Shown in pieces: positions 4,582-18,646 of a DNA stretch of 64,000 bases. Each line of letters starts with the position of its first letter. The first letter of the stretch is position 1. The stretch lies in the IMG/VR virus record IMGVR_UViG_3300029319_000001, one strand, 5' to 3'. The notes below the pieces were generated by a model. It saw nothing but the letters and a program-made list of their open reading frames with translations. It was not told where the DNA came from and ran no database searches. The DNA comes from a virus (taxonomy: Duplodnaviria > Caudoviricetes). The translations under genes were made by a program, and so were the position numbers.

Positions 4582-6285
4582 ATGGCAGCAAATAATTGGA
4601 GTAAGACAACTCAACAGTTATTGACTGGTACACCTGGCACACAAATATCATTTGGTGAAATTCGTGCTGCTATAGGTGATACCAGTAAATCTATTTCTGC
4701 TTCAGAATTACACAGACAAACAGACCTTGATGCACCATATGATTTTAGTCAGGGTAAATATCCATCATCATCAACACCACATCTACCTTATGTTTTAGAT
4801 GCTACTGAGAATGTTGGTGTACCTACTAGTGGTGCGATAACACCACAGGATATTAGAGGAGTTATAAAAGAATATGTGATTGAACAGGACACATTGACAG
4901 AAGAGGAGAACTTTAATGTTACTACTCTAAGCAGTCCTACAACACCTAGTATCAATGCTGATTGGAACTCAAACTTAAATAAAAATATATCAAAATTTCT
5001 TAAGATCAAAGGTAGACTAGTAAGTACCAATACATCAAATCCTGCTGCTGTTGCCGATCAACCATCATCTAACCTAACAGTATTTGTTAACAATGCACCA
5101 TCATCTTATGGTGTGTATGGTGCAGGTGGTGGTATCAATCAACCTGGTGGACATGCTATTAGTATCAGTCAACCATCAGGTCCTGCGATTAGAAAAGTAT
5201 TTGTAGAGTGTGAAGGTTCAGACGCTAGGATATATGGTGGAGGTGGTGGTGGAAAAGATGGTACTGATGGTACTGATGGCACACCTGGTAGTGGAGAGAG
5301 TACTGGAGTACCTGGTACACCTGGTACACCAGGCACACCTGGTTCAAATGGTAATGATGGTAGTGCAGGTAGCGATGGATCGGATGGTTCAGATGGTCAA
5401 CCAGGATCCACTGGTACACCTGGTATGCAAAGAACAACATTCCAGCAAAGATCTACAGTACAAACTAGAACAACTAGTCAATCAAGAAGTTCTCGCAGAA
5501 AAAGATTTGGTGGGTGGCCTCGTAGTCGTCGTGGACAAATTCAGGGTAGAACATCATTTCAGGCAACTGGTTCTACTCAGTCAAGGTCAGCAGCACAGTC
5601 AAAAATGGCATGTTTCGGTGGTGCAGCTGGTAATGCTGGTTCTAAAGGTTTACATGGTAATTCTGGTGGTGGCGGTCAAGGTGGTCAGGGTGGCTCTGGC
5701 GGTGGCGGTGGTCAGGGTGGAACTGGAGGACCTGCAGGTTATTCAGGACAAGGTGGATTAAAAGGATATGGTGGTACAGCTGCACCAGGTCGTGGCTGGA
5801 ATTATAAGACTGGTAACATAACAGGAACACCTGGTAGTTTCGGAACACCAGGCACACCTGGTGGTGGAGGAGGAGCAGGAACACCTGGTACACCTGGTGG
5901 AAGTGGACAACCAGGAACACCTGGTACACCTGGTGGAAGTGGAACACCTGGCAGTGGTGGAACACCTGGTACACCTGGTGGTGCTGCAAGTTGTAACGCT
6001 GCTACACCAGGAACACCTGGTACACCTGGTACACCTGGTACTGATGGAACACCTGGTAGCGATGGTCAACCAGGTGCAAAGGGTAACGATGGTCAACCAG
6101 GTCAACCTGGTACACCAGGAAATCCTGGCACACCTGGTCAACCAGGTCAACCAGGTCAACCTGGTGGTAATGGTGGTGACTGGGGTGAAGCAGGTGGTTC
6201 ACAAGGTGGTAATGCAGGTCGTGCAGTTGCTGGTAGCAAGTATGAAGTTAAACCCAATAATGGAGATATTAAAGTAATCTACTAA
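4582..6285 (+). CDS. Glycine-rich fibre-tip/adhesin-like protein (gp38-like termini) with G-X-Y (GTP/GQP/GSD) repeats
   Basis: QISFGEIR near the N-terminus, YGAGGG...GGHAISI...IYGGGGGG, long G-T-P triplet runs, and C-terminal GGNGGDWGEAGG..GGNAGRAV resembling T-even gp38 polyglycine adhesins. Confidence 0.65.
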   Translation: MAANNWSKTTQQLLTGTPGTQISFGEIRAAIGDTSKSISASELHRQTDLDAPYDFSQGKYPSSSTPHLPYVLDATENVGVPTSGAITPQDIRGVIKEYVIEQDTLTEEENFNVTTLSSPTTPSINADWNSNLNKNISKFLKIKGRLVSTNTSNPAAVADQPSSNLTVFVNNAPSSYGVYGAGGGINQPGGHAISISQPSGPAIRKVFVECEGSDARIYGGGGGGKDGTDGTDGTPGSGESTGVPGTPGTPGTPGSNGNDGSAGSDGSDGSDGQPGSTGTPGMQRTTFQQRSTVQTRTTSQSRSSRRKRFGGWPRSRRGQIQGRTSFQATGSTQSRSAAQSKMACFGGAAGNAGSKGLHGNSGGGGQGGQGGSGGGGGQGGTGGPAGYSGQGGLKGYGGTAAPGRGWNYKTGNITGTPGSFGTPGTPGGGGGAGTPGTPGGSGQPGTPGTPGGSGTPGSGGTPGTPGGAASCNAATPGTPGTPGTPGTDGTPGSDGQPGAKGNDGQPGQPGTPGNPGTPGQPGQPGQPGGNGGDWGEAGGSQGGNAGRAVAGSKYEVKPNNGDIKVIY

Positions 6286-17053: not shown

Positions 17054-17241
17054 TGGCATTAAAGATGGACAAAGACCTTAAAAAGTTGATGAAAAAGTAT
17101 GATTTCAAACTTGAAAAGGTTGGCAAACACTATACTTGGCATGGGGCAAATGGTGCTATAATAGTAACATCCAAAACACCAGGAAAAGCAAGATATCTCA
17201 AGGAGATAGAATGCAACATTCGTAAACAACTCAGCAATTAA
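17053..17241 (+). CDS. HicA-like (dsRBD-fold) protein
   Basis: LKKLMKKYDFKLEKVGKHYTW...GAIIVTSKTP pattern with GKH His; 62 aa, basic. Confidence 0.6.
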   Translation: MALKMDKDLKKLMKKYDFKLEKVGKHYTWHGANGAIIVTSKTPGKARYLKEIECNIRKQLSN

Positions 17242-17245
17242 TCTC

Positions 17246-17464
17246 ATGAACAAAAAGCAATTTTTCCCATCACATTCTGAATCTATCGATGTAGGATATA
17301 TGACCTACCTTGATTTACTAACAGAGTTACAAAATTTAGATGAAGATAGACTTTTAGATGTTGTTACGGTCTATGATACACTAGACGATGTATTTTTACC
17401 AGTTGGTAGGATTATAACAAATAATCATAATGAGAAGATCGGAAGCACATGTTTAGAGGTATGA
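17246..17464 (+). CDS. Hypothetical early protein
   Basis: MTYLDLLTELQNLDEDRL..VTVYD pattern. Confidence 0.65.
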   Translation: MNKKQFFPSHSESIDVGYMTYLDLLTELQNLDEDRLLDVVTVYDTLDDVFLPVGRIITNNHNEKIGSTCLEV

Positions 17465-17518
17465 CAGTTTAATTAGTGTCTACAAATGCATGTTTTTGGT
17501 CAGATCATTTATTATAAT
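17463..17518 (+). promoter_or_regulatory. Box E plus -10
   Basis: GACAGTTTAATTAGTGTCTAC at 17463-17483; TATAAT at 17513-17518 (29 bp gap). Confidence 0.8.
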
Positions 17519-17525
17519 AGATGTA

Positions 17526-17598
17526 TAGGACAGAGGAAAGGTTTACGCCCCAACCGAGATAATTTCAAAGGAAAGGTTACCGCCCCAACCGAGTCCTA
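17526..17598 (+). ncRNA. Putative small structured RNA or 5' leader with two tandem hairpins
   Basis: TAGGAC/GTCCTA closing stem encloses two 25-bp repeats AGGAAAGGTT(TA/AC)CGCCCCAACCGAG at 17534-17558 and 17569-17593. Confidence 0.55.
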
Positions 17599-17625
17599 AA
17601 ATCTATTCAATTTAATTCAAAAACT

Positions 17626-17814
17626 ATGCGAAAAGGATTAAACATCGAAGTCACTAACTCTCAATATGACTTCCTTTATGACCTCGTGATGATGGCATAT
17701 GAGTTAGATATCCCAGAGCAAAAAGGTTGGGATATGCAAACTTTCGACAATCTTGTTGATAATGTATGCCAAGCAACAGAGACTAATTTATCAAACAATG
17801 TAAGAGGAGTTTAA
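17626..17814 (+). CDS. Hypothetical early protein
   Basis: ORF track; follows promoter E. Confidence 0.7.
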   Translation: MRKGLNIEVTNSQYDFLYDLVMMAYELDIPEQKGWDMQTFDNLVDNVCQATETNLSNNVRGV

Positions 17815-17815
17815 A

Positions 17816-18010
17816 ATGAATTACAGAATGACTAAAAAACAAGCAGTTCAGCAATTTAGATGGGATTGGTCAGATTTTGTACAAAGCAATCCATCATATA
17901 GAGGAGACAGTATTGCTAAACGATGTGCATTTAACGATTATGTTGACTCACTCAATAAAGACGGATTAGTAACAGATTATCAAGCATACAACTGGAGCAA
18001 CCCATTCTAA
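17816..18010 (+). CDS. Hypothetical early protein
   Basis: GAGGAG RBS; DSIAKRCAFNDYVDSLNKDGLVTDYQAYNWSNPF motif. Confidence 0.75.
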   Translation: MNYRMTKKQAVQQFRWDWSDFVQSNPSYRGDSIAKRCAFNDYVDSLNKDGLVTDYQAYNWSNPF

Positions 18011-18156
18011 TGAACATTCAAGAAGAAATCTTTGACCAAATCGAAGAACTAAACACTAGTTTAAGAGAATTAAATGATGGCGATTTAGTAGAATGTAGAT
18101 CAGCATTAATTGATCGCACTAACATAATCATGCAACTATTAGAGGAACTTTCATGA
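18010..18156 (+). CDS. Hypothetical 48-aa acidic protein (not in ORF track)
   Basis: TAATG and ATGA overlaps on both sides. Confidence 0.6.
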   Translation: MNIQEEIFDQIEELNTSLRELNDGDLVECRSALIDRTNIIMQLLEELS

Positions 18157-18413
18157 AATTCTATAATGTACAATCTAGAATAACCAAGGATAACCCAGTT
18201 CAATCAGAACATTTTGGTAGGCATTTTTGGTTAGATGATGAGCAAGAATTGATGAGTTGCCCATCATTCAACGATGATACCGCAGATTTTAACAATGCTG
18301 ATTATGTATCAGAGTGGACAGACCTCGAAGGTTTAGACCTAGGAAAATTGTTAGAAGTTTATAAAACTCTCATCAATCATGATAATTATATTGATGAACT
18401 AAGCAATGTGTAA
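18153..18413 (+). CDS. Hypothetical acidic early protein
   Basis: ORF track; overlap packing. Confidence 0.7.
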   Translation: MKFYNVQSRITKDNPVQSEHFGRHFWLDDEQELMSCPSFNDDTADFNNADYVSEWTDLEGLDLGKLLEVYKTLINHDNYIDELSNV

Positions 18414-18591
18414 ACAATTTATTAACCCTAAAATCATGAAACTAAAACCAAAAACAATTAAAGTAGAATTCACATTTGATGAATTATATCAAATGAACAA
18501 ATTGTATGAGACAATGTTAGATATGGATATGACAGAAGACCTACCCAAGGAAATTGAAACTAGTTTTGATAAAATTCGAGAGGCAAAGTAG
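18406..18591 (+). CDS. Hypothetical early protein
   Basis: ORF track; ends at box F. Confidence 0.6.
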   Translation: MCKQFINPKIMKLKPKTIKVEFTFDELYQMNKLYETMLDMDMTEDLPKEIETSFDKIREAK

Positions 18592-18646
18592 ACAGTTTAA
18601 TTAGTGTCTACTCATGCCTGTTTTTGGTATCATTATCCATTATAAT
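18591..18646 (+). promoter_or_regulatory. Box F plus -10
   Basis: GACAGTTTAATTAGTGTCTAC at 18591-18611, identical to box E; TATAAT at 18641-18646. Confidence 0.8.

Follow-up and report, generated by a model that had tools for sequence, protein, structure and literature searches.

A twin-repeat element in an early leader, specific to one lineage of T4-like cyanomyoviruses

Just downstream of a predicted early promoter of a marine cyanophage lies a 73-nt segment (positions 17526-17598) in which two GC-rich repeats are bracketed by a short inverted repeat. The locus raises the question of how such a segment arose within a phage leader and whether it acts as an RNA, as a DNA site, or not at all. 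It was found in a window of 64,000 nucleotides, i.e., the whole stretch of DNA analyzed (IMG/VR record IMGVR_UViG_3300029319_000001), which belongs to a T4-like cyanomyovirus with baseplate wedge proteins, a helicase, and tryptophan-halogenase-like genes, and whose few DNA matches are Prochlorococcus and Synechococcus myoviruses. The segment is referred to below as the twin element.

The layout proposed in the initial annotation, a 6-bp closing stem around two 25-nt GC-rich repeats in AT-rich surroundings, was borne out by direct reading and by a repeat search (Table 1). The arms TAGGAC and GTCCTA form an inverted repeat that brackets two direct repeats of 28 nt each, which are 89% identical and recur with a period of 35. 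Each repeat comprises, in order, CA(G/A)AGGAAAGG, GGTT, an 8-nt loop ending in CGCCCC, AACC, and GAG. The G+C content of the two 25-nt units is 56%, compared with 0.337 for the surrounding positions 16001-18000. None of the 3 of 28 positions at which the repeats differ falls within the purine tract, the stem, the C-run, or GAG, and the 7 nt located 3′ of each unit have only about one base in seven in common; the position of these differences and the unrelated 7 nt disfavor a neutral and recent 35-nt tandem duplication. The 25-mer pattern, with up to 3 mismatches allowed, was matched twice in the 64-kb window and never in 100 shuffles, and no further copy of the element was found in the window, where the locus is single.

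Table 1. Features of the twin element and its surroundings (positions are those of the window).
Feature	Position	Strand	Remarks
21-bp pseudo-palindromic box of the early regulatory cassette	17463..17483	+	same 21-mer at 18591-18611; exact copies 5′ of short canonical leaders in related contigs
-10 hexamer TATAAT	17513..17518	+	predicted transcription start near A17525
5′ arm of closing stem (TAGGAC)	17526..17531	+	pair probability 0.66-0.99; aligns with canonical ...TATAAAC..., which has A's where the twin leader has two G's
Repeat unit 1	17531..17558	+	canonical SD-box-like CAGAGGAAA, GGTT 17540-43, loop TACGCCCC 17544-51, AACC 17552-55, GAG
Linker ATAATTT, AT-rich, between units	17559..17565	+	no repeat of the linker after unit 2
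Repeat unit 2	17566..17593	+	CAAAGGAAA, GGTT 17575-78, loop ACCGCCCC 17579-86, AACC 17587-90, GAG
3′ arm of closing stem (GTCCTA)	17593..17598	+	its G is the final base of unit 2
AU-rich 3′ leader without SD	17599..17625	+	most polymorphic part of the leader; final 10 nt TTCAAAAACT equal the end of the canonical leader
62-aa early ORF (P0001), function unknown	17626..17814	+	first of five small ORFs 5′ of the next boxed promoter at 18591

With regard to the promoter, TATAAT and the AG that follows it are invariant across orthologous and paralogous cassettes. The -10 hexamer is perfect, the best -35 at a spacing of 17 nt (ATGTTT) is matched at 2/6 positions, and the promoter is absent from the list returned by a consensus promoter scan of the window. 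The spacing given initially was confirmed: 7 nt separate TATAAT from the element, which thus starts 8 nt after the hexamer, or at about +2 if transcription begins at the predicted A17525, and 27 nt lie between the element and the ATG at 17626.

The origin of the element is suggested by the other cassettes that share the 21-bp box. In related contigs and at position 18591 of the window, the box precedes TATAAT and a canonical leader that is short, about 30 nt (TATAAT-AGTAATATA-CAAAGGAAA-TTCAGAAATTATG). This leader is matched by the first bases (AGATGTATA..CAGAGGAAA) and by the last bases (TTCAAAAACT before the ATG) of the twin leader, which has about 76-78 nt added after the Shine-Dalgarno (SD) box. 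The remaining boxed promoters of the window have leaders of 22-31 nt without the element, as had been noted at the outset. The 5′ part of each repeat unit, CA(G/A)AGGAAA, is the SD box of these canonical leaders; a GC-rich segment, GGTT-N2-CGCCCC-AACC-GAG, was gained 3′ of it, and SD box plus segment are present twice, 35 nt apart. Because the 5′ part of the unit equals the canonical SD box, the twin element looks like an insertion plus duplication within a canonical leader that has pushed the SD box away from the start codon. The two SD-like tracts are now situated 84 and 49 nt 5′ of the ATG, both enclosed in the domain closed by the 6-bp stem, and the start codon lacks an adjacent SD. No donor of the GC-rich segment was found in the window or among genomes representing each GTDB species once.

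The cassette is embedded in a hyperplastic early region (15-21 kb) made up of successive small ORFs on the plus strand, of unknown function. Those between the boxes at 17463 and 18591 encode 48-86 aa, the ORFs neighboring the twin element have no Pfam match, and no gene was found to co-occur uniquely with it. A putative structured RNA at 11964-12140 bears no visible likeness to the element. Two further observations were made in the window. On the minus strand, a near-consensus promoter-like site (18385-18414, TTTACA-18-TATAAT, 11/12) is located inside the early ORF run and would give an antisense transcript over ORFs 17626-18413, toward the twin element. In addition, long arrays with periods of 9, 27, and 36 nt (ACACCTGGT-like units) at 5822-6165, within the ORF at 4582-6285, suggest a repetitive, possibly collagen-like segment of a virion protein.

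The stretch itself does not appear to be coding. No ORF of at least 40 aa in the window's ORF list overlaps the element, and a coding reading was rejected since the 35-nt period shifts the frame between the units. A 13-codon ORF from the ATG at 17522 was also dismissed; its start lies 5′ of the predicted transcript start and has no SD. Neither SD-like tract is followed by an ATG, GTG, or TTG. A split ribosome-binding site, as in T4 genes 25/38, was rejected because 35 nt still separate hairpin 2 from the ATG.

The distribution of the element was examined by pattern, nucleotide, and protein searches. Among phage-like matches, this locus was the only one recovered by exact-pattern scans of IMG/VR in which different parts were fixed and by a scan covering 241 million metagenome records; in IMG/VR the matches came from one lineage only. 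The non-phage metagenome matches all correspond to the GroEL codons for IKVGAPTE in high-GC bacteria; the 21-nt unit pattern in contigs L186, L187, L191-L194, L196, and L197 consists of these codons. They are judged to be one chance match multiplied by homology, a case that illustrates how exact-pattern scans can return a single coincidence many times. One genome per GTDB species gave three single, unrelated matches, and blastn of the element against 50,697 phage records gave none. A small mobile repeat of the MITE or REP kind was rejected, since the window has a single locus and the same locus alone was recovered from IMG/VR and metagenome contigs. The element is present at this locus in all 43 additional loci of the lineage that were fetched, 7 by DNA pattern and 36 by exact-protein look-up; the latter are loci with a P0001- or L118-type ORF, and a few of them represent the same contig twice. 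In the assembly collection, the look-up proteins occur in 130-273 blocks, from which 23-24 contigs were read per look-up. The lineage that carries the element is widespread in the ocean. The element is real, well delimited, and specific to this one virus lineage.

A search guided by the downstream ORF protein recovered 33 syntenic IMG/VR loci, of which only the near-identical L115/L045, L116/L025, and L118/L099 carry the element; in the rest, the same gene is found behind a short leader or fused into an operon. The element is missing from the orthologous leaders of L121, L122, L130, and L226-L229, all of them short. In L121, L122, and L130, whose flanks are 95-100% (one upstream gene) and 75-97% (the gene just downstream) identical to those of the window, a different box-promoter-leader is present and the twin element is absent. 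The contig L236, the clearest example, combines both situations. It has the window's 72-aa upstream protein exactly and an ORF that is 90% identical, with the first 33 residues the same, and it carries an L121-type cassette between these window-type flanks, with an intergenic spacer of 83 nt compared with 161 nt in the window. Comparison of L236 (820-905) with positions 17463-17625 of the window and with L121 and L226-L229 marks it as a recombinant with the flanks of the one and the cassette of the other. Two alternative box-promoter-leader cassettes thus share one locus in ocean populations and are swapped as units, and the twin element belongs to one of them. The twin-less L121-type allele, too, is common, with 110 blocks in the assembly collection, which indicates that the element is dispensable.

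More generally, the region is a mosaic of near-identical and divergent blocks. When 16937-17049 and 17250-17461 were compared with L099, L188, L189, and L195, whole small ORFs differed between haplotype groups at roughly one in five sites or more, and in the same comparison the adjacent ORFs and the promoter-leader differed at about 3%. Such a sharp mosaic at 16937-17461 is consistent with gene-by-gene allele replacement. In two other cyanophage contigs (L131, 372-570; L143, 250-535), several palindromic AATCTCGTCGAGAT-like copies are located 5′ of a homologous small ORF and may constitute a different regulatory repeat.

Sequence constraint was assessed by counting variable sites over 27 sequences, seven of which had been found via the repeat pattern itself. 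The core, i.e., the repeat units plus the closing stem (61 nt), has 2 variable sites, neither of which is non-singleton. Variable sites number 16/128 at the third codon positions of the next two ORFs (12 non-singleton), 5/39 in the rest of the leader (3 non-singleton), and 8/256 at first and second codon positions (4 non-singleton). Against a pooled neutral proxy of third positions and the rest of the leader, the core is less variable (2/61 vs. 21/167, Fisher p = 0.027; non-singletons, p = 0.008), and against the rest of the leader alone the values are 0.08 for all sites and 0.057 for non-singletons. These counts point to modest purifying selection on the core, subject to the pattern-found sequences, the divergence of mosaic blocks, and the small numbers; the low variation could instead reflect a mosaic genealogy or biased sampling.

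Both changes in the core are singletons of the same contig, L204 (1120-1175, an ERR599012 contig), the only one changed inside the repeats. Loop 1 carries C17549T, and the base of hairpin 2 carries G17575A, an uncompensated change that disrupts the first pair of this hairpin; both substitutions are toward A/T. The two changes represent either a real decaying variant or an assembly error. In L224, a further contig whose record is identical to that of L235, the 3′ leader shows one additional indel and the core is free of indels. In an alignment of eight sequences all 14 pairs are invariant, so that covariation is silent for or against any fold. As for a structure conserved among homologues, the element is absent from those outside the lineage, and what holds is that its core varies little within it.

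The predicted fold departs from the one first proposed. The initial annotation had the RNA forming twin hairpins, but in ViennaRNA each GGTT/AACC hairpin contributes only -2.4 to -2.6 kcal/mol, and the twin-hairpin structure has -10.7 kcal/mol against -14.8 kcal/mol for the minimum free energy (MFE) fold. The latter is a rod in which repeat 1 is paired with repeat 2, the G-runs of one against the C-runs of the other, and both small hairpins, with a pair probability of 0.03-0.04, are a minor conformer. Only the closing stem is a robust helix, with a pair probability of 0.66 for the terminal pair and 0.96-0.99 for the other five. An outer extension of this stem by ATAGAT/ATCTAT was rejected, as its 3′ arm is polymorphic. 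Compared with shuffled sequences, z is -1.06 for the 73-mer and +0.25 for the 136-nt leader; the predicted fold of the element is thus thermodynamically unremarkable.

Taken together, the element is tentatively regarded here as a leader RNA module that acts in cis to modulate the translation or the stability of the mRNA. It would be a lineage-restricted elaboration of the leader in one mobile regulatory cassette (box, -10, and leader), most likely active in cis, on the early mRNA. With the closing stem at about +2 of the predicted transcript, the base-paired 5′ end and the two SD-like tracts without start codons could serve as a 5′ stabilizer or as a docking module for ribosomes or a protein, by which the early transcript of five ORFs would differ in half-life or translation from that of the twin-less cassette. 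Since the canonical SD is uncoupled from the AUG, the first ORF should be translated differently than in the twin-less allele. SD use is said to be weak in marine picocyanobacteria, which would count against this reading. Support for the cis reading may be drawn from the conserved promoter module, the absence of the element from orthologous leaders, its persistence in the lineage, the modest constraint on the core, the robust closing stem, and precedent in the literature; counting against it are a fold no better than shuffles, the modest selection signal, the uncompensated change in L204, and the common twin-less allele.

The alternatives start from much the same observations. Unlikely, but to be taken seriously, is that the element is a near-neutral relic of an illegitimate insertion and local duplication during cassette shuffling, inactive in itself and carried along by a successful promoter/ORF allele. 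Its confinement to a single locus of a single lineage with relatives that lack it, the unremarkable fold, and the mosaic of recently exchanged blocks around it all fit such a relic, and the core polymorphism of 2/61 is near that of neighboring conserved coding blocks (2.6-3.2% variable sites). Less easily accommodated are a core that varies less than the interleaved and adjacent leader bases and the third codon positions, the persistence of GC-rich sequence in a phage of 34% G+C, and a 6-bp stem that brackets the repeats exactly; 28-mers that are 89% identical, followed by 7 nt of which about 1/7 is shared, are likewise unexpected for a neutrally drifting 35-nt tandem duplication. It is improbable that the element works as a DNA operator, with two direct-repeat GGTT-N8-AACC dyads centered near +23 and +58 at which a phage or host protein would act as a roadblock and shut off the cassette. 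All stems are pure Watson-Crick and equally readable in double-stranded DNA, the direct repeats lie just 3′ of the promoter, and the core is conserved. The same dyad or CGCCCCAAC, however, occurs near no other promoter in the 64 kb, and no DNA-binding gene is linked, the neighboring ORFs being without Pfam match and none of them co-occurring uniquely with the element. Moreover, the conserved non-symmetric spacer is atypical for dyad operators, and a DNA reading leaves the 6-bp inverted repeat flush with the predicted start unexplained.

The remaining alternatives concern other RNA functions. A decidedly improbable one is a functional bivalent RNA module that distinguishes the two co-circulating cassette alleles, either by docking or decoying ribosomes or an RNA-binding protein, or as a two-state switch, in which the twin-hairpin form would expose the two SD-like tracts and the rod form would pair them with the C-runs. 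A bivalent protein-binding leader had been suggested at first sight. The compact leader of a promoter cassette, closed by a stem from about +2 and with modestly reduced core polymorphism, does fit a functional cis element that might bind something. A trans-acting or processed sRNA, or a sponge whose identical C-rich loops would titrate G-rich RNA, SD sequences, or a C-binding protein, is very unlikely. In its favor, the 73-nt domain that the stem closes at the predicted 5′ end of a transcript contains two loop sequences that are identical (CGCCCC). For an independent sRNA gene, defined by its own promoter and a terminator or 3′ end, a promoter is present and a terminator absent: no terminator-like site was found between 17599 and the ORF at 17626 or inside this ORF, no obvious processing signal follows the element, and nothing marks a 3′ end, all of which speaks against the stand-alone or processed sRNA envisaged initially. 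The hairpins that would display the loops have the low pair probabilities given above, and blastn, within its sensitivity, detects the element in no isolated phage. The related proposal that the C-rich loops pair with G-rich targets fared no better, as only seven GGGGC sites occur on the window's coding strand and none of the contexts listed is at a start. Least probable is a tandem ligand-sensing riboswitch, e.g., one distantly like NAD+-I (nadA), for which one may cite that loop 2 (ACCGCCCC) equals ACANCCCC at 7/8 positions and that the arrangement is tandem (PMC7297122). Neither nadA nor any other riboswitch model matched even at E<=10, the twin octamer is a loop closed by 4 bp whereas that of nadA is a bulge between P1 and a 7-bp P1a, and the downstream genes are ORFans rather than metabolic genes. 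Together with orthologous leaders that lack the element, no conservation beyond one phage lineage, and an unremarkable fold, these points also leave little of the ligand sensing first proposed. A riboswitch and a separate sRNA are both improbable readings of the element.

For now, the element is an orphan of one lineage with weak evidence of constraint and has little bearing on any open question. If it is active, T4-like phages would diversify expression by adding leader RNA modules, beyond swapping promoter cassettes; if the bivalent module were true, natural populations would carry a regulatory polymorphism that stems from a new RNA domain inserted in a shuffling promoter cassette. Both alleles are frequent in ocean metagenomes, which offers a clean natural comparison of leaders with and without the element.

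With regard to described RNA families, Rfam 15 gave 0 matches for the whole window at the gathering threshold (nadA, mini-ykkC, preQ1, glutamine/Downstream-peptide, manA, wcaG, and Yfr included), and at E<=10 only three snoRNA-model matches, which are due to chance, were obtained for 17400-17700. The Rfam check called for initially therefore points to no relevant family, and the twin element is not a member of any described RNA family. Among riboswitches, the NAD+-I (nadA) motif is comprised of two tandem domains, each with a ACANCCCC octamer (PMC7297122; PMC6859854), which forms a bulge of 8 nt that separates P1 from P1a (7 bp), and with a GYG internal loop; the crystallized domain 1 has 52 nt (PMC7297122). 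Tandem similar domains and C4-containing octamers, ACANCCCC there and ACCGCCCC and TACGCCCC here, are common to both. In contrast, the twin octamer is a hairpin loop closed by GGTT/AACC without P1a or a GYG loop, its units measure 25-28 nt, and it precedes a 62-aa cyanomyovirus ORFan instead of nadA in Acidobacteria, with no covariance-model match. The guanidine-II riboswitch (mini-ykkC) has two small tandem leader hairpins with ACGR tetraloops and GC-rich stems. Two small tandem hairpins in a leader are likewise a feature of the twin element, but its loops are of 8 nt, ACG is found in unit 1 only, and Rfam gives no match. The put RNA of phage HK022 acts in cis just 3′ of phage early promoters and has long stems. 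The twin element shares this position just downstream of a phage early promoter; the put stems are much longer, and no termination signals are seen 3′ of the twin element.

Closer parallels for the favored cis reading are provided by mRNA stabilizers. Base pairing at the 5′ terminus and SD-like tracts without start codons are both established as such (Bouvet & Belasco 1992, Arnold et al. 1998, and Agaisse & Lereclus 1996, as cited in PMC3997798), and both have been reported to protect bacterial mRNAs from 5′-end-dependent decay (references in PMC3997798). As in the 5′ stem-loops of ompA and papA, the pairing in the twin element would start no more than about 2 nt from the predicted 5′ end, and, as in the STAB-SD of cryIIIA, the purine-rich SD-like tracts of its leader are distant from and uncoupled to the start codon. 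Neither is related to it in sequence; the phage host here is a cyanobacterium, and in the twin element both SD-like tracts are located inside a stem-closed domain, whereas STAB-SD is free.

The cassette as a whole is best compared with PeSLs, i.e., stem-loops combined with a sigma-70-like early promoter that form mobile regulatory cassettes of T4-type phages (Arbiol et al. 2010, PMC2839356; Comeau et al. 2014, PMC4122927). The text of the PeSL paper that was searched makes no mention of cyanophages. PeSLs are promoter plus inverted-repeat modules in hyperplastic regions before small ORFans (PMC2839356, PMC4122927), a description to which the present locus conforms, and the 21-bp box with TATAAT recurs within the genome (17463 and 18591). 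Exchange as a unit is seen between close relatives (L236 and the window), and since the cassettes are swapped as units at one locus, their behavior fits that of PeSL mobile regulatory cassettes. On the other hand, the box here is located 28-31 bp 5′ of the -10 (the figure of the initial annotation), the -35 is poor, and the twin element lies 3′ of the start site as an extra leader module of a kind not described for PeSLs. It is best filed as an orphan leader module within a known kind of phage regulatory cassette.
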